Source: Thermoplasmatota archaeon
Lineage (GTDB): Archaea; Thermoplasmatota; Penumbrarchaeia; Penumbrarchaeales; Penumbrarchaeaceae
Length of the DNA: 64,000 nt
Reading direction: 5' to 3'
NCBI GenBank assembly: GCA_029762535.1
Contig: JARVGK010000006.1
Coordinates: forward strand, 14,603 to 78,602
A model generated the notes under the pieces. The model saw only the letters and a program-made list of their open reading frames with translations, did not search any database and had not been told where the DNA came from. The translations under genes and the position numbers were made by a program. Positions 29,441 through 43,758 of this stretch are shown piece by piece. Numbering within the stretch: the stretch's first letter is position 1; every line of letters starts with the position of its first letter.

Positions 29441-30593
29441 GAAGGGACAGGTCCTCGGCCACCCCGGATCTGACCATGTATCGGTTAATGAATATCCTGT
29501 TCTTGAGATAGACCAGATATCCCCCTCCCCCATGAGGCTTGAACATGACCTCCCTGCCGAGTATATGTTCGTTCAGATATGATATGGCCCTTTCTTCATG
29601 AAGGATACGGATCCCTCCAAGCTCCAGATCGTTCCCGTCCGAAAGCACAAGGGTTAATGGGTCCAGTATCTGCTCCACCTTGTTCAATTTATTTTTTTTG
29701 TATCGGTCCTTTTTAGAGGGTTCCATGTTGTTTATCGAGGGGAGGTATCCTTCATCGTAACATGGAATTGTGGAGGGAGGTCTCTCGAATATCGATACTT
29801 CCCCGCTGAGGAACCTGTCCTGACCCACTTTTTCCTTGATGATGGGGATATAGGTCATGTTCAATTCGTATCCCGTGCAGGACCTGTCAAGGTCCAGAGA
29901 GGCCTTCATCGTGGTCCCGCTGCCGAGGAATGGATCCAAAACCTCTTCCCCGACGAACGAGAACATGCGTATCAGCCTCCTCGGTAGTTCCTCGGGGAAC
30001 ACCGCCTCATGGTCCGCCTGTCTTGCGCCTTTGAACGTCCAATGCCCCGAGAAGTATTCCTTCCACTCCTCCTTGGATAGCTTGGACCCTTCCTTATCGA
30101 ACTTCTTCGGTCCTTCCTTGCCGGGTTTCTTGAATATCATTATATGTTCATGGTCCAGTTCGACGATGCCGTTCGGTGGATATGGGTACGAACCCATGAC
30201 CGGCGCGCCTCCAGTGGTGTTCAACGTGGTCCTCTTCTGCCATATTATGGATCCGATGAAATCGAATCCGAGCCTCTCGCATTGTATTATCATCTCGGCA
30301 TGGAGGGGCACCACCTTGTATCGCCCGTAATCCCTCGTGCGGGTGAACTGATCCCCTATGTTTATTACGAGCCTCCGACCCGGCACCAAGACTCTGAAGC
30401 ATTCCTCCCAGACGAGGTAGAGGTCCTTCAGGTACGTGTGAAGGTCCGATCCCCTGCCTATCTGGCCGTTTATCATGTAATCCTTGATGTCCCAGTAAGG
30501 GGGAGAGGTGATGATGAGATGTTTGGATCCCTCATCTATCTCGTTCATCTTCCTTGAATCGCCTATTATGAGCCTTCCCTTCATCCCGTCCAT
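29424..30593 (-). CDS. DNA methyltransferase (N4C/N6A, beta class) with C-terminal degenerate thermonuclease-like domain
   Basis: ITSPPY precedes VLDPFLGSGTT; HEAVFPEELPRRLI; tail ending YLVYLKNRIFINRYMVRSGVA. Confidence 0.88.
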   Translation of the reverse strand: MDGMKGRLIIGDSRKMNEIDEGSKHLIITSPPYWDIKDYMINGQIGRGSDLHTYLKDLYLVWEECFRVLVPGRRLVINIGDQFTRTRDYGRYKVVPLHAEMIIQCERLGFDFIGSIIWQKRTTLNTTGGAPVMGSYPYPPNGIVELDHEHIMIFKKPGKEGPKKFDKEGSKLSKEEWKEYFSGHWTFKGARQADHEAVFPEELPRRLIRMFSFVGEEVLDPFLGSGTTMKASLDLDRSCTGYELNMTYIPIIKEKVGQDRFLSGEVSIFERPPSTIPCYDEGYLPSINNMEPSKKDRYKKNKLNKVEQILDPLTLVLSDGNDLELGGIRILHEERAISYLNEHILGREVMFKPHGGGGYLVYLKNRIFINRYMVRSGVAEDLSLPKGRR

Positions 30594-30699: not shown

Positions 30700-32940
30700 C
30701 TATATCGAGTCAATAATGGCATTGTAGGTCTGGCTAGGCCTCATGGCCCTGGATGCCATATCGTCATCCGGCTTGTAGTAGCCGCCTATGTCCACGGGAT
30801 GTCCTTGGGCCGCGTTAAGCTCCTGCAATATCTTATCCTCGTTCCCCTCGAGCTGTTCTGCCACGGGTGTGAATATACTCTTCAGCTCGGGATCGTCATT
30901 CTGATCCGCAAGCTCCCTTGCCCAGAACATGGTCAGGTAGAAATGGCTGCCCCTGTTGTCTATCTCGTTGACGTCTCTACCGGGCGACCTATTGCTCTCG
31001 AGGAACCGACCGTTGGCCCTATCCAGGGTTTGGGACAGAACTCTAGCCTTTTCGTTCCCGGTCCTGTTGGCCAGGTGCTCGAGCGATGCCGATATGGCAA
31101 GGAACTCACCCAAAGAGTCCCATCTGAGATGACCCTCATTGAGGAACTGCTCGACGTGTTTGGGAGCGGAACCTCCCGCACCCGTCTCGAATAGACCTCC
31201 GCCGTTCATCAACGGCACGATCGAGAGCATCTTTGCGCTTGTGCCCACCTCTAGTATCGGGAAAAGGTCCGTGAGATAGTCCCTAAGGACGTTCCCAGTC
31301 ACGGAAATAGTGTCCTTTCCCTCCTTTATGTACTGGCATGAGAACCTGGTGGCCTCGTCCGGAGACATTATCCTTATATCGAGCCCTGTCAGATCGTATT
31401 CTTTCAGATATTCGTTCACTTTTTTGATCAATTCCGCATCGTGGGGCCTTTTCTCGTCAAGCCAGAACACGACAGGGAGCTTCGTATCGATGGCCCTGCC
31501 CACAGCTAATTTCACCCAGTCCTTGATCGCCGGGTCCTTGACCTCGCACATCCGGAAGATATCGCCCTTCTCCACATCCTGCTCCATCAGGACCTCGCCA
31601 GAGGAGGCGACTAGCCTCATCTTTCCGTCGCCTGGTGCCGAGAAGGTCTTATCATGGGACCCGTACTCCTCGGCCTTCTGGGCCATGAGGCCGACGTTCT
31701 GGACAGACCCCATGGACCTGGGGTCGAAAGCACCGTTCTGCCTGCAGAAATCGACGACGGCCCTGTACACCCCGGAATAGCTGCTGTCAGGGATCACGAA
31801 CTTTGCCTCTTTAAGTGTCCCATCCTTTCCGTACATCCTACCACCTGCCCTGATGGCTGCGGGCATGGAGGCATCGATTATGACATCGCTCGGGACGTGG
31901 AGATTGGTTAGGCCCTTATCCGAGTTCACCATGGCCAGCTCTGGACCTTTGGCATACACCGCCTCGATGTCCTTCACTATCTCCAACCTCTTCTCCTCAG
32001 GTAGCGATGCGATCTTTGTGTATAGGTCTCCTAGTCCGTTGTTGGGGTTGATCCCAAGCTCCTTGAATATCACTTCATGCTTCTCGAATACGTCTGCGAA
32101 GAAAACGGAGACAACGTGTCCGAATATAATAGGGTCGGACACCTTCATCATCGTCGCCTTCAGATGGATAGAGAACAGTACCCCCATCTCTTTAGAGTGC
32201 TCTATCTGCCCCCTTATGAAATCCCTGAGGGATCTCACGCTCATGTGAGATGTATCGACGATCTCCAGGGCAGGCAGCTTCATATTATCCTTGAGGACCT
32301 TGACATCGCCGTTATCTCCAGTATATTCTATCCTTGCCTCCATGTCCGAGTCTATCGTCAAAGACCTCTCGTTCGACCTGAGATCCCCGGATGCCATGCT
32401 GGATACATGCGCCCTGTTATCGGGTTTCCATTCAGCCATGGAATGCGGGTGCTTCCTCGCATAGTTCTTTACGGATGCCGGGGCTCTCCTATCTGAATTC
32501 CCTTCTCTCAGGACGGGATTGACCGCGCTGCCTTTTATCTTATCATAGACGGTCTTTATCGTCCTTTCCTCATCGTTCTTGGGTTCATCTGGATAATCCG
32601 GCAGGGCGTACCCTTTGCCCTGCAGCTCCTTTATCGTCGCTTTTAGCTGTGGTATCGACGCGCTTATACACGGGAGCTTGATAACGTTCGCTTCGGGCAT
32701 TTTGACAAGCTTCCCCAGCTCTTCCAGGTCATCGTTGATCCTCTTGTCCTCGCTCAGATGGTCGGGGAACTTGGCTATCGTCCTGCCGGAGAGCGATATG
32801 TCCCTGGTCTCCACCTTCACTCCCGCGGCTCCCGTGAACGCTTTGATCACGGGAAGCAGCGAATAGGTCGCAAGCGCCGGGGCCTCATCGACCCTGGTGT
32901 ATATTATCCTGTTTCCATCAATTCTCTCTTCGTTCGACAT
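30700..32940 (-). CDS. icd: Monomeric NADP-dependent isocitrate dehydrogenase
   Basis: [64 protein letters not shown]. Confidence 0.96.
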
Positions 32941-34570
32941 CCTTTTCCTCCTTTTCAGCGAATACCGCATCATCGTAGTATCTTGGTTCGACGTTCCTTA
33001 CCACATCTATGATGGTCCCGTCCCTGTATTCGATCAAAGCAACGATCTCATCTCCCCAGTTAGGTTCGACCTTGGTCTGGGTTATCTCGTAGGCCTGCCT
33101 TTGAAGGTCCTCTATGGTCGTTATCTTCATGTCCCGGGGTATCTTGACCGAAGCGAGCTTTTCAAGAAGGTCGATCCTTCGCGGGTTCATCGCTATGCCC
33201 CGCTCTGTCACGACGACGTCAATGTTCTCTCCAGGGGTCACCACGGTGTTGACCCTGTCGACCACGACCGGATACCTTCCTCTGAAAAGAGGGACGGTCA
33301 ATATCGTCAGGCTAGCTCCGGCCGCGGTGTCCGAGTGCCCTCCGACGGGCTCGGCTATGATGCCGTTGGACATCGTGACCGAATTAACGTTATAATCCAG
33401 ATCCACCTCGGTCGCGCCCAGGACGACTATGTCCAGCTTGTTGACGGTACATCCTCTCCCATGTATGTTGGCGTATGCTCCGATAGGCAGGTCAACGTGG
33501 ATCTTGGGGTTCTCCTTCATGTTATGTATGGCGGCCACATCGAATGCCTGGCCCGTGATGAGTTTCTTCACTGTCCCATCGAGGAGCATCTCGACAAGGA
33601 ATTTCGTGGTCCCGCCCTGGGCCCAGGCGGCCTTCACCCCCTTTTCCTTCATCCTCTGATGAAGGAATTCCGTGAAAGCAAGCGAGATCCCCCCGGCCCC
33701 CGCTTGAAAGCTCATCCCCTCCTTGACGTAACCCAATAGGTCCGCGATCCTCATCGCGTCCTTGGCTATCTTGAGCCTGGTGGGCGAGTTGGTTATCCTG
33801 AGTTCGCCTGAGGCGATCTTGTTCGGATCCCCTATCTTGTCCACGACGACCACGTAATCTACCAGCTCCTGGCCGATGGACATGGGGAAGTTGGGATATT
33901 CCACAAGATGGTCCGTCACTGCGATAACATGGTCGGCGAAGTGAGCATCGGCATAGGCGAAATTGATCGTACCGCAAGCTGATGGGCCGTTGATCGCGTT
34001 GAGATTTCCCAGTTCATCTGCGGATGGTGCTCCTATGAAGGCCACATCCACGTGTATGTCACCGGCCTCGATCGCCCGGACCCTTCCCCCATGGGACCGG
34101 ATCCTCATAGGTTGGTTGAGATATCTTCCTGAGCTTACGAGCCTCCCGAACTCGCCCCTTGCGGAACCGCCTTCGACCTTTTTGATCGTCCCGTTCATTA
34201 TACATCGGATTATTGCCTCCTCCTGGCAGGGGAATGTGGATGAGGGGGCAAGGATGAGGTCCTTTATTCCCTTCCTCTCGATCTCCGCAAGGACCATGTT
34301 CATCACATGGTCCCCGTTCCTGAAATGGTGGTGGAAGGATATGGTCATGCCGTCCTTCAACCCGATCTTTTCCATTGCCTCGCCAAGTGTTTTCACAACC
34401 TCGTTCTCCTCGGAGGCAACATATCCGAGCTTGGGTCCGTACTTATGGTCCTTGACCGGCCTGTGGGCGAAGGGACCTTTGTAAGGTATCAGCTCCACAC
34501 CATCGATGGACCTCGGGACCTTTCTACCCAGGGAGTTCTCCACCCACTCCACATCCGAGATCTTCACCAT
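32918..34570 (-). CDS. citF: Citrate lyase alpha subunit (citrate CoA/ACP transferase)
   Basis: [49 protein letters not shown]. Confidence 0.94.
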
Positions 34571-35514
34571 CAGTCATCGCCTCCACCGCTTTTTTTTGCC
34601 TTCTGCTGCATCATCTCCGTCACTTCCTCGGGAGATGGTATGTCAAGGTCCGCCATCTTGGCGATCTCGAGCACCCTCTCGGCCTTGAGCACTATTGGTC
34701 TGTCTATCATCTTCGCCCCTAGGGCGACCGCTCCTGAGCCCTTCTTTTTCGCTTCCTCGATAGCCATCTTCACCCTAACGGCGTAGAGGATCTGCTCTGG
34801 GGTTGGATCGAAAACCGAATGTATTATCTCGACCTGGCTGGGATGGATGCATGCCTTTCCATCGTAACCCATTGTCTTTATCATCTCGGTCTCCTTTCTC
34901 AAACCTTCGGGGTCGCCGAAATCAGAATAGACAGTATCTATTGCTTGTATCCCGGCGGCCTTGGCCGCGAGAAGTACCATCGACCTAGCCGTGTTTATCG
35001 CCGTTCCTGTGCTGGACCTCTCACCCCCGAGATCCGCTGTAAGGTCCTCTCCGCCTATGGTAAGCGCCTCGAGTCTTTTGGAGCATCTTGCGATATCATA
35101 TGCGTTGATGATGCCCTTTGCCGTCTCCAATGTCGCGAACAGCTTTATCCTGCCTATTGGGAGGCCTTTCTTCTCCTCCAGGTCGGTCACGATATCATCC
35201 ACCTGTATGACGTCCTCCCTGGACTCGACCTTCGGAATGTATATGCCGTGCAGTTTCTCCGAGACTATCTGTTTGATGTCCCATTTCCCGTAGGGCGTGC
35301 TCATCGGATTGATCCTCACGGTGACCTCGGTCGCTGGGCCGAAATCGATGACCTTCAATGCCTCGGAGACGAGCATCCTGGCATCGGTCTTGTATTCGAG
35401 GGGAACGGAGTCCTCAAGGTCTAATGATATTACATCGGCGCCGTATAGACCTGCTGGGGGTATCATCTTCGGGTTGTTCCCTGGGACGTATAGCCTGGAA
35501 CGTCTGAGCCTCAT
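34570..35514 (-). CDS. citE: Citrate lyase beta subunit (citryl-CoA/ACP lyase)
   Basis: RRSRLYVPGNNP, DLEDSV, VRINP, GGED, GKACIHPSQ, MIDRPI. Confidence 0.94.
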   Translation of the reverse strand: MRLRRSRLYVPGNNPKMIPPAGLYGADVISLDLEDSVPLEYKTDARMLVSEALKVIDFGPATEVTVRINPMSTPYGKWDIKQIVSEKLHGIYIPKVESREDVIQVDDIVTDLEEKKGLPIGRIKLFATLETAKGIINAYDIARCSKRLEALTIGGEDLTADLGGERSSTGTAINTARSMVLLAAKAAGIQAIDTVYSDFGDPEGLRKETEMIKTMGYDGKACIHPSQVEIIHSVFDPTPEQILYAVRVKMAIEEAKKKGSGAVALGAKMIDRPIVLKAERVLEIAKMADLDIPSPEEVTEMMQQKAKKSGGGDD

Positions 35515-35795
35515 TCAAAAGCGCCCCCTTTTATCGCAGCGGCCTTGGTGCGCGCCACTATGGTGAAGTTCAGAGGGCTCTTACCAGAGCTCCAAACGAT
35601 GGCGTCCTCTATGCCCATACCGTGAAGCGTATTATCAAAGATCCGGAAGACCTCATCCCTGAAGACATCTCGGGATTTCCCCACTATTTCTATCTTTATA
35701 CCAGTCCCGGGCTCTGCGGGCGAGAGCTTTACTATGCAGTCCTCTCTCTCCTCGGTGCCGGCCTGGGCCTCCCTTAGCAGCTTTCTTGCGGCCAT
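35511..35795 (-). CDS. citD: Citrate lyase acyl-carrier protein (gamma), atypical
   Basis: 94 aa immediately upstream of citE. AQAGTEERED aligns to AxAGTLESxD; C-terminal TIVAR. Confidence 0.8.
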   Translation of the reverse strand: MAARKLLREAQAGTEEREDCIVKLSPAEPGTGIKIEIVGKSRDVFRDEVFRIFDNTLHGMGIEDAIVWSSGKSPLNFTIVARTKAAAIKGGAFE

Positions 35796-35807
35796 GACAT
35801 CACAACC

Positions 35808-37730
35808 TCATGAAAGCTGGCTCTTGGTATAATTGAGGGTTCCGCCGAGCCTGATGGTCTCCAGCTCCCTATCGGAGAGATCGTGGACGAGCTTTATCTT
35901 CGATCCCTTGTTCACTACCTCAATGATCAACTCACCCTTGAGATCGCCCACTTCCAGCTTCAGCTGGTCACCCTTCTCTATCTTGTCGTAATCGGAAGGG
36001 TCATTGAAGGTCAAGGGTGGGATCCCGAAGTTAATTAGGTTCGCCCTGTGTATCCTTGCGAAGGACTTGACGATAACAGCTTTGACACCAAGGTATTTCG
36101 GTGCCAGTGCTGCGTGCTCTCTGGATGATCCCTGACCGTAATTGTCCCCGCCGATGACGAAACCACCTTTCTTCTCGAGCGCCCTCTGCGGGAAGGTGTT
36201 GTCCACCTGACTGAAGACGAATTCGGATATGGCCGGGACGTTGGACCTGAGAGGCAGGATCTTCGCTCCTGCGGGCATGATGTGGTCCGTCGTTATGTTG
36301 TCTCCGACCTTTATAAGGACCTCCCCATTAAGCTCCGGCGATAGCGGTTGGAAGTCCGGCAGCGGTTTTATGTTAGGACCTCTCAGGATCTCCACCTTTC
36401 CCGCCTCATCAGGGGGCAGCGGATACACTATTAAGCTGTCGTCGTAGTCGTAAACCTCAGGTTCATCGATCATGTGCATTTGACCGATCTCCCTCGGGTC
36501 CGCGAACTCTCCCTTTATCGCCGTATAGGCAGCTATCTCTGGGGAGACCAGATAGACCTGGGCATCCTTTGTACCTGACCGGCCTTCGAAGTTGCGGTTG
36601 AATGTCCTCACTGATATCGCTCCCGTGTTCGGAGCGAGACCCATTCCAATGCATGGTCCACAGGCGTTCTCGAGCATCCTGAAACCCGCTCCGACGATAT
36701 CCGCCAGCGCGCCGTTCTTGGTTATCATCTTCACAATGGCCCTCGATCCGGGGGATACGGTAGCGGATACATCCTGATGGACCTTCTTCCCCTTCATTAT
36801 CTGGGCGACAACCATAAGGTCCCTGTATGATGAATTCGTGCAGGAACCCACGCATACCTGGTCCACTTTCATACCCAGAAGCTCTTTGAGGGTGACCACC
36901 GCCCCTGGGGAATGAGGTTTTGCCACCATCGGCTCCAAGGATGAGAGGTCTATCTCCATGACCGTATCGTAAGCTGCGTCATCGTCAGCTTTCAGTTCGA
37001 TCCATTGGTCCTCCCTGCCCTGTGCCTTGAGGAACTGCCTGGTGATCTCGTCCGAGGGAAATATGGAGGTCGTGGCTCCCGTTTCCGTCCCCATATTTGT
37101 GATCGTGGCCCTGTCCGGGACGCTCAAACTCTTAATGCCTGGGCCGAAATACTCAAGTATGAATCCCCTGCCTCCCTTTACATCGAGCCTTCTTAGGACC
37201 TCGAGTATCACGTCCTTGCCGGATACCCAATCAGGAAGCTCACCCTTCAGATGGACCCCCATGATCTTCGGGTACTTCAGACCGAAGGCCCCACCTCCCA
37301 TGGATACTGCGACATCGAGACCGCCTGCACCTATGGCGAGGGATGCCACGCCACCAGCAGTTGGTGTGTGGGAGTCCGATCCGATCAGGGTCTTTCCCGG
37401 CCTTGCGAAGCGTTCGAGCATTACCTGATGGCAGATCCCGTTGCCGGCCTTGGACAGCGTAATGCCATATCTCCTCGCGATGGATTGGAGATACCTGTGA
37501 TCGTCAGCGTTCTTGAAATCGCTCTGCAGCGTGTTATGGTCTATGAATGATACGCTCAATTCGGTCTTTACCCGGTCAAGGCCCATTGCCTCGAACTGAA
37601 GGTATGCCATGGTCCCAGTAGCATCTTGGGTGAGCGTCTGGTCCATCTTGATCCCTATATCGGATCCTTTCTCTTCATCTCCTGATACGATATGTTCTCT
37701 GATGATCTTCTCCGAAAGGGTTAGTCCCAT
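35808..37730 (-). CDS. acn: Aconitate hydratase
   Basis: QDATGT, GICHQ, GSDSHT, GSCTNSS, CGPCIG, FNRNF, TTDHI, GSSREHAA. Confidence 0.95.
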   Translation of the reverse strand: MGLTLSEKIIREHIVSGDEEKGSDIGIKMDQTLTQDATGTMAYLQFEAMGLDRVKTELSVSFIDHNTLQSDFKNADDHRYLQSIARRYGITLSKAGNGICHQVMLERFARPGKTLIGSDSHTPTAGGVASLAIGAGGLDVAVSMGGGAFGLKYPKIMGVHLKGELPDWVSGKDVILEVLRRLDVKGGRGFILEYFGPGIKSLSVPDRATITNMGTETGATTSIFPSDEITRQFLKAQGREDQWIELKADDDAAYDTVMEIDLSSLEPMVAKPHSPGAVVTLKELLGMKVDQVCVGSCTNSSYRDLMVVAQIMKGKKVHQDVSATVSPGSRAIVKMITKNGALADIVGAGFRMLENACGPCIGMGLAPNTGAISVRTFNRNFEGRSGTKDAQVYLVSPEIAAYTAIKGEFADPREIGQMHMIDEPEVYDYDDSLIVYPLPPDEAGKVEILRGPNIKPLPDFQPLSPELNGEVLIKVGDNITTDHIMPAGAKILPLRSNVPAISEFVFSQVDNTFPQRALEKKGGFVIGGDNYGQGSSREHAALAPKYLGVKAVIVKSFARIHRANLINFGIPPLTFNDPSDYDKIEKGDQLKLEVGDLKGELIIEVVNKGSKIKLVHDLSDRELETIRLGGTLNYTKSQLS

Positions 37731-37749
37731 TTTATTCCTCCTTATCACC

Positions 37750-37907
37750 TGCCCATCGGGGCGATTGCCATAAGTCGAACCGATATATATATGTTACTGA
37801 ATTATAATTATAGAAAATCTTTTTTATATTATTGTAGATGATTTCTTAAATTAATTTCCATTATAACGATGAATATATATATGATCGGGTGCATCATGTA
37901 AGCCAAT
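37750..37907. promoter_or_regulatory. AT-rich divergent promoter region (acn operon / regulator)
   Basis: Several TATA-like elements (TATATATAT, ATTATAATTATA, TTTTTATAT) between divergent starts. Confidence 0.6.
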
Positions 37908-39062
37908 ATGAAGAACTTGAACGATGCTGAGAGAACGGCCCTGTTCGGTCTCGTGACATTTCCCGATCTCAACGACATGGACCTCTCACAACGTTTCTCA
38001 ATGAAGTATTCCACATTCGCCTCGGCCAAGAGTCGCGTGATCGCAAAGGGATTCGTCGATGAGTACTATCTGCCCGTATTCCCTAGGCTTGGCTTCGAGC
38101 TATTGGCGACCGTATATACGGATTTCAACCCTGCTGTGACTGTGGAGGAACGCGTCAAGAACACGATAAAGCATGTAGAGGTCTATCCCGAGATGGTTTT
38201 TTCCCTCGGAGAGTCACACAGGGGTTTCTCGATATCGATCGCTGAGAACGTCACCCGCGTCATGAGGATATCACTCGAGAGGATCAAGTTGTTCGCTGAG
38301 CTGAACCTTCTGGAGATCGAGCTTCCCACGGAGATAATGCTTCCGTTCGAACTCTCGAACATTCATAGGTACTTCAACCTCTCACCACTGATCAATCTTA
38401 CTTACTCCACCACGGGCAAGAGCGGGTCGGAGCTTTCCAAGGAATTCTCCATCCCCCGAAGCGATCTTCTTTTTGGGGATTCGATTATGCAGGTCAATCC
38501 TAAAAACGAAAGATCGCAAGAGGACGATCTCTCCAGGGTGGAAAAGGAGCTGATGTACTATATAGTGAAGTACCCTCAACTATCGGCGGCAAAGCTCGCG
38601 AACATCGCCCCCTATTCTAGGCATACGATATCAAAGGTGAGGGAGGACATGCTGTATCGGGGTCTTCTAACCAAGCAGGTCATTCCGAACCTCAATGTAC
38701 TAGGATATTCCATACTCTCCCTGTTCCATGCCCGGATCGATCCAAGCAAACCCATAGATCCATCGACATGCAACCGGAGAGAGATCCTCCAGGATGAGAC
38801 CGTGTTCCTTGTCAGTAGGCCGACCGAGCTTTTGATGCTCGCCGTTTACGAGGATTACGTACATTACAACAAAGGCATGGGTGCTTTCATCCAGTTCCTC
38901 AAGTCAGGGAACTACATAACCAAGATCCCGACGATAAGGAACCACTCCCTCAAAGAGGCGATCATGATCAAGAGGTTCCAGTACCATGAGCTCCTGAGAC
39001 AGAGGTTCTCGCTCAATATCAAAGATGGTCGAGATACCAATATCGATGATCATCTCTCGTGA
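37908..39062 (+). CDS. Transcriptional regulator with two tandem Lrp/AsnC-like wHTH modules
   Basis: Two similar units, LNDAE..P...LS......ST....KGFV....P....LGF and LSRVE..P...LA......HT....RGLL....P....LGY. Confidence 0.7.
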   Translation: MKNLNDAERTALFGLVTFPDLNDMDLSQRFSMKYSTFASAKSRVIAKGFVDEYYLPVFPRLGFELLATVYTDFNPAVTVEERVKNTIKHVEVYPEMVFSLGESHRGFSISIAENVTRVMRISLERIKLFAELNLLEIELPTEIMLPFELSNIHRYFNLSPLINLTYSTTGKSGSELSKEFSIPRSDLLFGDSIMQVNPKNERSQEDDLSRVEKELMYYIVKYPQLSAAKLANIAPYSRHTISKVREDMLYRGLLTKQVIPNLNVLGYSILSLFHARIDPSKPIDPSTCNRREILQDETVFLVSRPTELLMLAVYEDYVHYNKGMGAFIQFLKSGNYITKIPTIRNHSLKEAIMIKRFQYHELLRQRFSLNIKDGRDTNIDDHLS

Positions 39063-40100: not shown

Positions 40101-41354
40101 TCACCTCTTCTTGCGGGCCTTGATCTCGACGCTCGGGCTGAGATCGACAACGCTCTGACCCCTTACCAGGTCGTCGGGTATGGGCTTCTCCTTCTCGGAT
40201 ACGAGATCTGGAAAGAGGGTGTTCAATTTCTTTGTTTCGAAGGGGCCCGAACGTAACAGCTTCGGAGGGTCCGTGCTCATATCGAGCACCGTATGGCCTA
40301 TGCCGTAATGGGTAGGCCCTCCATCAACGGCTATTGTCACGGTTTCCCCCAGTTGCTTGAGCGCCTCCTGCATTGTAGAGGGTGGAGGCTGCCCATGGAT
40401 GTTCGCAGAAGTGCCACATATCTCTATCCTCTCCATCACCGCTTTCATGAAGATGTTCTCACCGTCGGCTAGAGAGACGGTCTTCAGATTGGATGTAACA
40501 TAGTCGGGCACCCGTTCCTTCTTCTTTATGAATATAATGGATATCGGCCCGTCCAATTCGTTCTCCAGCAATGCCATGGTTCTGTCATCGATCTTCGCGT
40601 AATCCGTGAAACGGCTTCTCGGGACTATCATGGTCAGAGGCATGTCCTCTCCGCGTTTCTTCATCGCGTAGATCCTCTTGATGGCCTCCGGACGTTTTAT
40701 TGAGGCGAAAAGCCCATAGGTTGTATCGAAGGGACCTAAAAGGACCTCCCCTCGATTCAACATCTCGACCACGGTATCGACATATTTTTCCTTTGCCGGA
40801 AATATCTTCACCTTTTCAACCTCCTTCATTCTATCATTGTCCTTGAAAGGTCTGCTCATCTCCGATATACCGCCCTTCTCTATAAGAAGGGGAAATAGTC
40901 CGCCTTTTTCGATAATATCCATTATGAAACCTTGAAGCGGGGGCAGCGGCGAATCCCAACCCTTGGTGATATTATGTAACCTGTTATCCTCTATCAGGAC
41001 GCTGTCACCGTCAGAGCAAGCATCGGGAAGGTCGGGGTCCTCGTAAAGCGGTATGCCGAGATTTATCAGGTTCCTCTTCATTATAGGGGCTATTGACTTG
41101 GCAATGACCGCTTTTATTCCCAGGAACCTCATGGCGTTTGAGGCATGCTCTCTTGAGGACCCCTTGCCGAAGTCCTCACCGGCGACGATCACATCGCCTT
41201 CTCTGACCCCGGAGGCGAACCCAGGATAATCCTGCTCAAGGCAATGAAGGGAATAATCCTCCTGTGGAAGATGCAGATACCTCGTAGGGGCCAGCGCATC
41301 GGTATCGATATTATCCCCCAAAAGCCATATCCTTCCCTTTGCGATCTGTTTCAA
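40101..41354 (-). CDS. Fusion: LeuD/HacB isomerase small subunit + YrdC/Sua5(TsaC)-like domain
   Basis: aa 1-160 carry NIDTD, FGKGSSREHA, RNLINLG, GGL; aa ~176-390 carry PFDTTYGL, KKR, TSAN, DGG, LRSG. Confidence 0.85.
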   Translation of the reverse strand: MKQIAKGRIWLLGDNIDTDALAPTRYLHLPQEDYSLHCLEQDYPGFASGVREGDVIVAGEDFGKGSSREHASNAMRFLGIKAVIAKSIAPIMKRNLINLGIPLYEDPDLPDACSDGDSVLIEDNRLHNITKGWDSPLPPLQGFIMDIIEKGGLFPLLIEKGGISEMSRPFKDNDRMKEVEKVKIFPAKEKYVDTVVEMLNRGEVLLGPFDTTYGLFASIKRPEAIKRIYAMKKRGEDMPLTMIVPRSRFTDYAKIDDRTMALLENELDGPISIIFIKKKERVPDYVTSNLKTVSLADGENIFMKAVMERIEICGTSANIHGQPPPSTMQEALKQLGETVTIAVDGGPTHYGIGHTVLDMSTDPPKLLRSGPFETKKLNTLFPDLVSEKEKPIPDDLVRGQSVVDLSPSVEIKARKKR

Positions 41355-42580
41355 GGCACCACCTCTGAAGGATGGGCTATAACGCCTTTTAGCGCGGATG
41401 CCGCCGCGACGGCGACACCGCTTAGGTATATCTTGCTCGTGGGATCTCCCATTCTACCCTTGAAGTTTCGATTGGTGGTAGAGATCGCCACCTCTCCTGC
41501 GGGGAGGACTCCGAGGAAACCTCCTGCACAAGGGCCACAAGTAGGCATCGATATTATCCCCCCAGCATCCATAATGGTCTTAACGTATCCCGCCCTGGCC
41601 GCCCGGGTGTATACCGATCTCGACCCGGGAACGACGAGCATCTTGACCTCTGGGTGGATCTTCTTTCCCTTCAGGATGTCCGCCAGGACCCTGAGATCGT
41701 CCATTCTTCCATTTGTGCATGAGCCAATGAAGACCTGATCTATCCTCTTTCCGGTATGATTGTAGACATCGTCCACTCGATCCGGGGAACCTGGCAAGGA
41801 TATCTGAGGTCCTCTGTCGGTCACATCGATATGCTCGGTCTCCCAGTCCCAATCCTTCGATCCTGGCCCTTCATCATCGCTTTCGTTCGTCAGCGCTGAT
41901 ATACAATCTATCTCCGATGCCATATTGGTGAGTGTCATCCTGGAATCGTTTCCGATCCAATTCAATATATCCCCCTTCATCTCGAGCGTTCTGCCGTTCG
42001 CCCCGCCCGGTCCGAGGTGCTTGATCATCATAAGCGCCAGGTCCTTTCCCTCGCACCATACGTCCGGGGTACCCTCGAAGTATATGCCAAGGGGTTTAGG
42101 AACCTGCAGCCAGAACTCCCCGGAGGCCATGGCGACGGCCAGGTCCGTGGACCCTATGGCCGTGCAGAACGCACCCAAAGCACCTCCGGTCGTTATATGG
42201 GAATCGGCGCCTATGACGAGATCACCCTTCTTGACCCGATCCCCCTCGAAGAGATGCACGTGACATATGCCCTCGCCCCATCCGATCAGGTTCGCTATTC
42301 CGTGACGGGATGAGAATTCTGTCATGGCCCGGCAGCTTTCGGCTGATTCAAGGTCCTTCGGCGGAGTGAAATGGTCCAGATAAAGGTATATCTTCTTGGC
42401 CGCCCTTAGATACGGGACACCTTTGGAGTCCAACATCCTCATCGCAGGTGGGGTTGTAACATCATGTCCCATTATATGGTCCGGGAAGAAAACACCGTAA
42501 TCCCCCGGGACGAGATCCCCTTCGATCATATGATCTGAGAGTATGGACAACGCCAATGAACCAAGTACATCCCCGTTCAT
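41351..42580 (-). CDS. leuC: 3-isopropylmalate/homoaconitate isomerase large subunit (LeuC/HacA)
   Basis: GICH, GADSH, GSCTNGR, CGPCAGG, NRNFKGRMG. Confidence 0.88.
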   Translation of the reverse strand: MNGDVLGSLALSILSDHMIEGDLVPGDYGVFFPDHIMGHDVTTPPAMRMLDSKGVPYLRAAKKIYLYLDHFTPPKDLESAESCRAMTEFSSRHGIANLIGWGEGICHVHLFEGDRVKKGDLVIGADSHITTGGALGAFCTAIGSTDLAVAMASGEFWLQVPKPLGIYFEGTPDVWCEGKDLALMMIKHLGPGGANGRTLEMKGDILNWIGNDSRMTLTNMASEIDCISALTNESDDEGPGSKDWDWETEHIDVTDRGPQISLPGSPDRVDDVYNHTGKRIDQVFIGSCTNGRMDDLRVLADILKGKKIHPEVKMLVVPGSRSVYTRAARAGYVKTIMDAGGIISMPTCGPCAGGFLGVLPAGEVAISTTNRNFKGRMGDPTSKIYLSGVAVAAASALKGVIAHPSEVVP

Positions 42581-43758
42581 TGGCAGTGCCTCCTCAGGGA
42601 TTTCAATTCGAAACCGTTGGCCCTTGCGAATTGTATAAGATCGTCCTCAGTATCGAACGGGCCTTTGTATGTGGTCGTCTCTTTTACCAGGTCCGTGAGC
42701 TTTATCAATTTCTCATCGTCCAATGTCAGATTGTTCTTCTCGAGGAAATGTCTCAGTGCCGCCTTTCCGGTATGCTTTCCGATCACGAACTGACCTTTAT
42801 GCAGTCCCATCTCCTCCGGGTCGATGATCTCGTAGGTCAGGGGGTTCTTTAGTACGCCATGAACGTGTATACCGGACTCGTGCTTGAAAGCGTTCTCTCC
42901 TATGAGAGGCTGCCATATCTGTATGTTCAGACCCATCTCGTTCTTCACGGTGTCGCATAGGTTGCCAAGTCTGTCCATCTTCAAATTGGTTTCCACGCCC
43001 AGATGCCTGATGTTGAACTTCAATACGACCGCTATCTGTTCTAGAGGGCAGTTCCCGGCCCTCTCTCCGATCCCGGTCACCGTGCAGTCTATCTGTCCCG
43101 CACCGGCCCTGACCGCCGATAAGGTGTTGGCAGTTGCCAATCCTAGATCGTTGTGGCAGTGTATGCCCACCGGAACCCTGTCCCCAACACACGAGCGGAC
43201 ATGCTGGATCATGAGAGAAATATGCTCGGGCATTGCACATCCGACCGTATCCGCGAGATTGACCACATCGGCTCCAGCTCTGACCCCTTCCTTCATAATG
43301 TTCCCCAGAAAGAACAGGTCGGACCTTGTCGCGTCCTCCGAGCTGAACTGAATGGAATCGAACTTACCCTTGGCGTACCTTATCGCGTTGATCATCTTGT
43401 TTATGACATCCAGGGGTTCCATCCTGAGTTTGTCCCTCATGTGTATCGGAGAGGTGGATACCCAGAGGTGGAGCCTTGACCTTCCCGCTCTGGAAAGGAC
43501 CTCCTGGCACATGTCGATCTCGGTCGTTATCGGCCTGCATAGAACAGCTACTGTGGAGTTCTCCACCTCCTTGGAGATCATCCTTATCGCATTTCTCTCT
43601 GATCCTCCGTTGGCCGGAAAACCTGCCTCAAGTACGTCCACTCCGGCCGAGTCCAAAGCACGGGCTATGTTCACCTTCTTTTCTGGGGTGAGGTGTATCC
43701 CTGGCGCCTGCTCACCATCCCTCAGAGTGGTATCGAATACCCTTAAATTCCTGACCAC
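42577..43758 (-). CDS. LeuA/homocitrate-synthase family DRE-TIM enzyme without regulatory domain
   Basis: DTTLRDGEQ, EDATR, DTVG, HCHNDLGLA, GERAGN, HESGIH, GKHTG; 393 aa. Confidence 0.9.
   Translation of the reverse strand: MVRNLRVFDTTLRDGEQAPGIHLTPEKKVNIARALDSAGVDVLEAGFPANGGSERNAIRMISKEVENSTVAVLCRPITTEIDMCQEVLSRAGRSRLHLWVSTSPIHMRDKLRMEPLDVINKMINAIRYAKGKFDSIQFSSEDATRSDLFFLGNIMKEGVRAGADVVNLADTVGCAMPEHISLMIQHVRSCVGDRVPVGIHCHNDLGLATANTLSAVRAGAGQIDCTVTGIGERAGNCPLEQIAVVLKFNIRHLGVETNLKMDRLGNLCDTVKNEMGLNIQIWQPLIGENAFKHESGIHVHGVLKNPLTYEIIDPEEMGLHKGQFVIGKHTGKAALRHFLEKNNLTLDDEKLIKLTDLVKETTTYKGPFDTEDDLIQFARANGFELKSLRRHCQ

Follow-up and report, generated by a model that had tools for sequence, protein, structure and literature searches.

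An aconitase–citrate lyase–isocitrate dehydrogenase operon of Thermoplasmatota lacks the prosthetic-group serine and probably works on free CoA esters

Citrate lyase is the textbook case of an enzyme that depends on a dedicated, covalently bound arm resembling coenzyme A (CoA), for whose attachment and priming three genes are needed. The attachment site of this arm, 2'-(5''-phosphoribosyl)-3'-dephospho-CoA, is Ser14 of the gamma subunit CitD in Escherichia coli, and the classical citDEF genes are linked to a citrate carrier and an oxaloacetate decarboxylase. In the malonate decarboxylase holoenzyme, as described in passages of PMC5534430, the equivalent residue, Ser25 of MdcC, is at a loop tip turned towards the active site of the transferase, at around 10 Å from the 2'-OH of the ribose in a modelled CoA. 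Here we analyse a stretch of 64,000 nucleotides (nt), hereafter the window (contig JARVGK010000006.1 of assembly GCA_029762535.1), from an uncultured sediment archaeon of the Thermoplasmatota, whose metagenome-assembled genome (MAG) comprises 2.96 Mb in 102 contigs and is 93% complete. Unlike classical loci, the window contains citDEF within five head-to-tail genes on the minus strand (30700-37748; Table 1), in the order acn-citD'-citE-citF-icd, which also encode an aconitase and an isocitrate dehydrogenase (IDH); the prime denotes a CitD that lacks the attachment serine. Because the serine is lost and all the cofactor genes are missing, we consider it fairly probable that CitD'EF splits or forms citrate on free CoA esters, without a covalent arm, with the direction from glutamate to acetate favoured.

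Alignment with the E. coli CitD of the annotated K-12 record places Arg17 of CitD' at the position of Ser14. Among 41 CitD representatives obtained from 1.84 billion proteins, this position was Ser in 20 and Lys or Arg in 17. The 15 serine-less homologues that we aligned had Lys or Arg there without exception, with no alternative conserved Ser in that alignment, and the fused CitD-CitE forms recovered here were of the Lys type too. The AlphaFold model of CitD' (predicted local distance difference test, pLDDT, 87.3) matched the fold of MdcC (5vit_C, TM-scores of 0.72/0.70), a relationship recovered by fold comparison alone, as a sequence search of the PDB with CitD' gave no match up to an E value of 10. 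Arg17 is within loop 13-19 of the model, the hairpin between strands 10-12 and 20-26, where a basic side chain could contact the 3'-phosphate of free CoA, a group adjacent to the ribose 2'-OH mentioned above.

The median ratio of nonsynonymous to synonymous substitution rates (dN/dS) among same-family orthologues (n=17) was 0.098 for CitD', as compared with 0.073 for CitE, 0.068 for CitF, 0.075 for Acn and 0.093 for IDH, values that are rough because synonymous sites are near saturation. Additionally, CitE retains all 39 columns conserved in at least 93% of 74 CitE sequences, and CitF 91 of 95 highly conserved columns. The serine-less state looks selected, not decayed: the replacement is always Lys or Arg and originated repeatedly (see below), the dN/dS of CitD' is low, and both the MdcC fold and the invariant residues of CitE and CitF were kept. 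We also observed that CitE residues 7 and 9 covary with the type of CitD, with E. coli Met17/Phe19 changing to Arg/Tyr in 85-88% of the loci with Lys or Arg. The Met17 to Arg change was dropped as a marker for free CoA, because solved free-CoA relatives carry Glu, Val or Gln there. The predicted complex of CitD', CitE and CitF scored 0.83, versus 0.81 for a control with CitF replaced, and was not used as evidence.

In Pfam searches of the whole 93%-complete MAG, PF03802, PF01874 and PF10620 gave no match, indicating no CitX, CitG or MdcG, and the CitC family PF08218 gave just 16 bits, sub-threshold noise under the cut-off. Likewise, iterated profiles built on 80 citrate-lyase loci and run against all six-frame open reading frames (ORFs) of the genome retrieved one CitD, one CitE and no CitC, CitG or CitX. 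A previous sequence-only reading had noted that the window contained no citC, citG, citX or citrate synthase, which proved valid for the whole assembled genome. That reading also named a finding that would contradict the use of free CoA, namely all of citCGX together with a canonical citD at another place in the genome; none appeared in our genome-wide search.

We then compared 80 CitF loci from many phyla, taken from one-genome-per-species contigs and typed by profiles, of which 27 were of the Lys/Arg type, 43 of the Ser type and three of other types. None of the 27 Lys/Arg-type loci contained citC, citX or citG within 10 kb, versus 29 of the 43 Ser-type loci (Fisher p = 2e-9, ignoring relatedness). 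Genome-wide searches found CitX in 0/5 and CitG in 0/5 Lys/Arg-type genomes (Thermoanaerobacterium, Thermotogae, Bipolaricaulota, Ozemobacter and DHVE2); Ser-type genomes with no accessory genes nearby contained CitX elsewhere in 5/5 cases. In the CitF phylogeny, 22 of 26 Lys/Arg-type rows grouped in one clade with 98% support, which includes the window CitF as well as stand-alone CitFs and those linked to a citryl-CoA lyase (CCL; see below), and the remaining four were dispersed among Ser-type Bacillota. The smallest number of changes on this tree was five, and the scattered rows indicate repeated origins of the change, with Lys or Arg as the outcome each time.

Linkage to aconitase is not specific to the serine-less form, since eight of the 43 Ser-type loci have an aconitase gene within 10 kb. 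For instance, a Bathyarchaeia MAG contains the arrangement icd-acn-citD-citE-citF-citX (L068, 5246-12200) with a Ser-type CitD, that is, a canonical cofactor-bearing lyase with aconitase/IDH linkage, and its CitF sits in a clade that is otherwise mostly serine-less. The detection of CitX in this locus indicates that the same profiles do work in archaea.

To place the window operon in its phylum, we examined 201 evenly drawn Thermoplasmatota genomes, 140 of them of high quality, and annotated the neighbourhoods of about 80 Thermoplasmatota CitF loci. CitF was present in 67 of the 201 genomes, including 22 of the 23 from the window's own family, and CitX in none (0/201). CitG occurred in eight of the 201 genomes, with CitF alongside in just two, and in 0/23 genomes of the own family. 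None of 28 CitD loci from Thermoplasmatota had the prosthetic-group serine. The sequence-only reading had proposed a survey of the gene order, which turned out to be conserved: acn-citD'-citE-citF-icd occurs in 17 same-family genomes and two others, and every CitD' has Arg or Lys. In three same-family genomes, a non-orthologous enzyme of the Iso_dh type occupies the operon position of the monomeric IDH.

Other Thermoplasmatota families showed a different partner for CitF. In 15 related genomes we found an HD-citF-CCL arrangement, with aconitase next in eight of them, in which the lyase is a 256-aa protein of the NCBIfam citryl-CoA lyase subfamily (NF004866, 303.7 bits, cut-off 245). Examples of the complete HD-CitF-CCL-aconitase operon are L090:6513-11129 (genome G084) and L091:6303-11002 (G034). 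We consider these operons the weightiest of the arrangements, and they point to a free citryl-CoA intermediate, because a CitF of the same clade has here a partner lyase whose fold is unrelated and whose family acts on free citryl-CoA, and is still coupled to aconitase. In 14 further loci, citF overlaps an aconitase-family gene of around 400 aa (e.g. L103:5842-8606, L105:6713-9591 and L136:5853-8635); these units have no adjacent lyase gene and belong to small-genome families, mostly lacking a protein with the citrate-synthase fold. The phylum also contains citD'(Lys)-citE-citF without acn, and stand-alone citF genes. Together, Arg17, the lack of CitX in the phylum sample, the partition of accessory genes between Ser and Lys/Arg types and the exchange of the lyase for CCL support what the sequence-only reading had suggested, namely that these subunits may use free CoA esters.

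The spacing of the five genes, with a gap of 12 nt between acn and citD' and overlaps of 4 nt (citD'/citE), 1 nt (citE/citF) and 23 nt (citF/icd), fits a single transcription unit, and bears out the tight coupling on one strand described earlier. The last overlap holds for an icd start codon at position 32940, an ATG with a GGAGG upstream; the icd ORF reaches 32973, and a start there would extend the overlap to 56 nt. Similarly, the acn ORF reaches a GTG at 37748, although the ATG at 37730, also preceded by GGAGG, is the likelier start; relatives of this protein have 640-650 aa. Acn is a full-length equivalog match (TIGR01342, 938.4 bits, cut-off 719), and the PF03971 match of IDH spans residues 1-734 of 734. 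The citD' product scored under the cut-off of TIGR01608 (50.1 versus 63.5), and that of citE under the cut-off of TIGR01588 (321.9 versus 443.4 bits). The best structural sequence match of CitF was PDB 2hj0 (E 1e-142). The window contains the sole CitE and the only monomeric IDH of the genome.

Table 1. Coordinates in the window of the operon, the codon at the position of the attachment serine, and the divergent regulator
Feature	Coordinates	Strand	Basis
icd, monomeric NADP-type isocitrate dehydrogenase	30700..32940	-	TIGR00178 1239 bits, cut-off 950
citF, citrate CoA-transferase-type alpha subunit	32918..34570	-	TIGR01584 586.9 bits, cut-off 501.45
citE, citryl-CoA lyase-type beta subunit, HpcH/HpaI TIM-barrel fold	34570..35514	-	PF03328 216 bits
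citD', 94-aa citrate lyase gamma subunit homologue	35511..35795	-	PF06857 41.6 bits, cut-off 25.1
Arg17 codon of citD', aligned to E. coli CitD Ser14	35745..35747	-	alignment LESGD vs EERED
acn, single-chain aconitate hydratase, PRK07229/TIGR01342 type	35808..37730	-	NF005558 968.7 bits, cut-off 612
AT-rich spacer separating the divergent acn and regulator genes; presumed promoter region	37731..37907	.	read from sequence
TrmB/MarR-like winged-helix regulator, 384 aa	37908..39062	+	PF01978 E 0.004, residues 207-257 (weak)

The divergent gene had been described as a double-Lrp regulator. This identity was discarded, since its product matched nothing in Pfam or NCBIfam at E 0.001, neither HTH_AsnC nor AsnC_trans_reg, and gave only the weak winged-helix match of the TrmB/MarR kind listed in Table 1; the Atlas clusters closest to it consist of Thermoplasmatota regulators of the TrmB/MarR type. 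A relative (L004) has a 371-aa homologue of this regulator in the equivalent position. Directly downstream of icd, the window contains a gene for a PF01555 N6/N4 DNA methyltransferase (29424-30593, minus strand).

In the mechanism that we propose, CitF would transfer CoA from acetyl-CoA, or another acyl-CoA, to citrate, giving free (3S)-citryl-CoA, which CitE would cleave into oxaloacetate and acetyl-CoA. The net reaction would be the interconversion of citrate with acetate and oxaloacetate, acetyl-CoA being catalytic. The formation of free citryl-CoA by CitF is plausible because passages of PMC8085960 list EC 2.8.3.10 as accepting acetyl-CoA besides the acyl carrier protein form. CitD' would be a non-carrier subunit under purifying selection, with an invariant Lys or Arg at the tip of the arm loop; more speculatively, it may bind free CoA by the 3'-phospho-ADP end, or hand the labile citryl-CoA from CitF to CitE. 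Aconitase and the monomeric IDH would join citrate to 2-oxoglutarate, and glutamate dehydrogenase would join the latter to glutamate.

We examined how this reaction would connect with the remaining metabolism of the archaeon. Using E. coli proteins as tblastn queries, we detected no GltA, SdhA/FrdA, SdhB or SucC (E below 1e-6) and no E. coli-type Mdh in the genome, nor an E. coli-type phosphoenolpyruvate (PEP) carboxykinase or PEP carboxylase, and SucD matched AclA alone. AclA, located on contig C5 with AclB upstream, is the only protein of the genome with the citrate-synthase fold, and this pair indicates that the genome contains an ATP-citrate lyase. Thus, of the enzymes that the sequence-only reading listed for a genome search, citC/G/X, a GltA-type citrate synthase and citryl-CoA synthetase (CCS) were not found, and ATP-citrate lyase was. 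AclA is encoded a few kb from the operon in four same-family genomes and one same-order genome, and the contig of one relative has a gene for an ADP-forming acetyl-CoA synthetase near the operon as well. The genome also encodes malic enzyme, PPDK and a FumC-like protein, as well as TctA- and CitMHS-family transporters located outside the window. Two adjacent glutamate dehydrogenase genes occupy contig C27:30366-33035, one of which encodes a GdhA that is 59% identical to that of E. coli, an unusually high value for an archaeon.

Given the lack of citrate synthase, succinyl-CoA synthetase and fumarate reductase, the operon is predicted to be a linear branch, linking oxaloacetate and an acetyl unit through citrate to 2-oxoglutarate and glutamate, and not part of a closed reverse tricarboxylic acid (TCA) cycle. 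The earlier proposal that it either replaces citrate synthase or operates as a reductive branch therefore stands as far as a linear branch is concerned, but does not extend to the full reverse cycle. Autotrophy by that cycle, suggested by the ATP-citrate lyase and the Chlorobium-type monomeric IDH, was rejected because SdhA/FrdA, SdhB and SucC/D were not found.

We also noted three additional loci of this genome. A second, stand-alone CitF (contig C58:81484-83049; L009:9407-11053), of 548 aa and with 528 bits for TIGR01584, is flanked by ksgA and a TPR gene and has neither CitD nor CitE in its vicinity. Around 13 same-family genomes have a comparable isolated copy, and this second CitF groups with the CCL-linked CitFs in the phylogeny. 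The window also encodes a LeuA/homocitrate-synthase-family protein (42577-43758, minus strand) without a C-terminal regulatory domain and under every NCBIfam cut-off. The genome has just one further paralogue of this kind, on contig C43, and the window protein may function as a synthase of citrate (Re type), homocitrate or citramalate. Close to it, in a single 417-aa ORF (40101-41354, minus strand), a small isomerase subunit of the LeuD/HacB type (residues 7-155) is joined to a Sua5/YrdC domain (197-370), downstream of a LeuC/HacA-type large subunit (41351-42580).

We regard the reductive direction as the likelier, although with only about even confidence: glutamate would be converted, via 2-oxoglutarate and isocitrate, to citrate, and this to oxaloacetate and acetate. 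In a peptide-degrading anaerobe, this would supply pyruvate or PEP and acetyl units. Cleavage is favoured by the pull of low acetate, by the uptake genes that neighbour bacterial relatives, by the reversibility of IDH, and because reductive carboxylation of 2-oxoglutarate is the one way apparent in this genome to convert glutamate into oxaloacetate and pyruvate. In Deltaproteobacteria and Sporomusaceae, Lys/Arg-type citDEF adjoins TctABC or TRAP-type uptake genes. In two deltaproteobacterial loci (L005/L006, 6842-12754), the genes immediately preceding an Arg-type citD-citE-citF encode the tricarboxylate transporter TctCBA and a sigma-54 regulator of the PrpR type, a layout suggesting that the serine-less bacterial enzyme cleaves imported citrate. 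With respect to IDH, the window enzyme is presumably of the same monomeric type as that of Chlorobium limicola. The latter is described as reversible in passages of PMC2996986.

A possible, although doubtful, alternative is that the same free-CoA enzyme runs in reverse, with CitE condensing acetyl-CoA and oxaloacetate to citryl-CoA and CitF passing the CoA to acetate; citrate would then be synthesized with conservation of the thioester, replacing citrate synthase in an oxidative branch to glutamate. Besides the lack of citrate synthase in this genome, this agrees with the distribution of the full-length enzyme in the phylum sample, present in around 86 of the 134 genomes without CitF and in only two of the 67 with CitF. 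The layout is also similar to citrate synthase-aconitase-IDH operons, which reportedly occur in Pyrococcus and Clostridia, and a saccharolytic Thermoanaerobacterium carries citD'(Lys)-citE-citF-acn-icd. Furthermore, the ATP-yielding synthesis of citrate by ATP-citrate lyase in Desulfobacter postgatei, as cited in passages of PMC8085960, shows that citrate synthesis with conservation of the thioester can work in vivo. However, on thermodynamic grounds, synthesis would require the product of the acetate and oxaloacetate concentrations to greatly exceed that of citrate, a condition disfavoured in sediments, where acetate is scarce, and a peptide degrader with two GdhA copies would scarcely need to make glutamate. 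The uptake genes beside Lys/Arg-type citDEF likewise point to cleavage of imported citrate, and the LeuA-family paralogue located 4 kb away is a possible Re-citrate synthase.

It appears improbable that CitD'EF acts in a different pathway on CoA esters of other hydroxy acids, such as citramalate, methylcitrate or malate. The sub-cut-off score of CitE for its own equivalog and its weak matches to RipC and malyl-CoA lyase would allow this, as would the promiscuity attributed to CitE-like lyases. Conversely, CitF exceeds the citF equivalog cut-off, and so does the partner in the sister lineages for the citryl-CoA lyase subfamily; the flanking genes encode a bona fide aconitase and an IDH, the latter swapped in some genomes for a non-orthologous IDH in the same position; and the bacterial relatives adjoin tricarboxylate transporters. 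An ordinary holo-citrate lyase, with accessory genes that are too divergent or lie in the unassembled 7% of this 102-contig MAG, and with the arm on another residue, is very unlikely in spite of the Pfam CitG-family genes of eight other Thermoplasmatota genomes, because the attachment serine is itself Arg, no other Ser is conserved among serine-less homologues, CitX was absent from all 201 genomes and CitG from a family in which CitF is nearly universal (22/23), and the same profiles did find an archaeal CitX beside a Ser-type CitD.

Several points weigh against cleavage of citrate on free CoA esters as we favour it. The equilibrium of citrate lyase is near zero standard free energy, making either direction conceivable, and the near-exclusion of citrate synthase and CitF fits replacement of the synthase at least as well as cleavage. 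The score of CitE (322 versus the 443 bits of the citE cut-off) allows for another hydroxyacyl-CoA substrate. In addition, CitD'EF is not the only citrate-cleaving system of the genome, and ATP-citrate lyase combined with ADP-forming acetyl-CoA synthetase would catalyse the same net reaction, leaving the selective value of CitD'EF unclear. Finally, the absence of accessory genes is negative evidence from MAGs, and an unrelated loading system, or another attachment residue, is possible, although no other Ser is conserved.

Judged from gene content and alignments, three findings are new here. The serine-less form is the exclusive one across a phylum of archaea; its coupling to aconitase and IDH is conserved, which would pin down citrate as the substrate; and CitF forms operons with CCL that amount to a natural experiment, one lyase fold having been exchanged for another around the same transferase. 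If our interpretation holds for the whole phylum and for many anaerobic bacteria, 'citrate lyase acyl carrier protein' is a misnomer for thousands of database entries, whose proteins would be non-carriers, and metabolic reconstructions that require citC/X/G, or ignore citDEF when scoring the TCA or reverse TCA cycles, misjudge such organisms. It would also allow energy-starved sediment archaea without citrate synthase to connect citrate and oxaloacetate independently of ATP and in a thioester-neutral manner, with a bearing on how glutamate is made or burned and on the evolution of citrate synthase, CCL, ATP-citrate lyase and CitEF. The idea is directly testable, as there are isolates carrying such genes (Thermoanaerobacterium sp. 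DL9XJH110 and Veillonella intestinalis DSM 110113). More tentatively, anaerobic Thermoplasmatota and several bacterial phyla might possess a third way to convert citrate into oxaloacetate plus an acetyl unit and back, dependent on a CoA-transferase and preserving the thioester, formed by CitF with either CitD'-CitE or CCL. It would either replace citrate synthase, which is very rare in these lineages, by forming citrate out of oxaloacetate and acetate with acetyl-CoA needed only in catalytic amounts, or cleave citrate without ATP in a hitherto undescribed fermentation of glutamate to acetate.

The closest described system is the classical CitDEF (EC 4.1.3.6) of E. coli (citCDEFXG), Klebsiella pneumoniae and lactic acid bacteria, with which the window operon shares the three homologous subunits and the D-E-F order, a CitF over the equivalog cut-off, the invariant residues of CitE and CitF, and the MdcC/CitD fold of CitD'. 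It differs in the change of Ser14 to Arg, a genome without CitC, CitX and CitG, the linkage to aconitase and IDH, the archaeal host and the separate clade of its CitF. Our searches of open-access papers retrieved no description of a serine-less CitD or of a CitF-CCL pair. The potential for a reverse TCA cycle based on ATP-citrate lyase has been reported in Thermoplasmatota MAGs (PMC9802188, PMC12220078), and the passages of these papers on citrate lyases do not mention citDEF.

With the CCS/CCL system of Hydrogenobacter thermophilus (Aoshima 2004, as cited in passages of PMC9802188 and PMC3362086), the proposed reaction shares a two-step cleavage via free citryl-CoA, and a CCL-family lyase does adjoin CitF in the 15 related genomes, whose operons would amount to an analogue of the CCS/CCL pathway that depends on a CoA-transferase. 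In the window, however, citryl-CoA would originate from the CoA-transferase CitF and not from an ATP-dependent synthetase, and the lyase is the TIM-barrel CitE; a tblastn search with E. coli SucC and SucD retrieved no CCS-like homologue from the genome besides ATP-citrate lyase.

ATP-independent citrate lyases have been proposed before in the reductive direction. In Ignavibacterium album, CitF and a CitE-CitD fusion were suggested to serve an unconventional reverse TCA cycle, in passages of PMC3362086 that mention neither a missing serine nor missing accessory genes. Likewise, the canonical citCDEFXG of Geobacter bemidjiensis was proposed for a reverse TCA cycle (passages of PMC2996986), with the full accessory set, unlike the window. 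Our interpretation shares with these proposals the enzyme and its direction, but the window genome cannot run the full reverse cycle.

The CitE-like lyases that work on free CoA esters and are paired with CoA-transferases (malyl-CoA lyase, CLYBL, RipC/Ccl and Mycobacterium tuberculosis CitE) have the same HpcH/HpaI fold as the window CitE, whose best PDB matches are 5ugr, 1sgj, 5vxc and 4l9y. In comparison with them, the window protein is closer to the citrate lyase subunit (322 bits for citE, 151 for RipC and 81 for malyl-CoA lyase) and keeps partners of the CitD and CitF types. The AclBA of the same genome also links citrate to oxaloacetate and an acetyl unit, but it belongs to an unrelated protein family, depends on ATP and yields acetyl-CoA, where CitD'EF would yield acetate.

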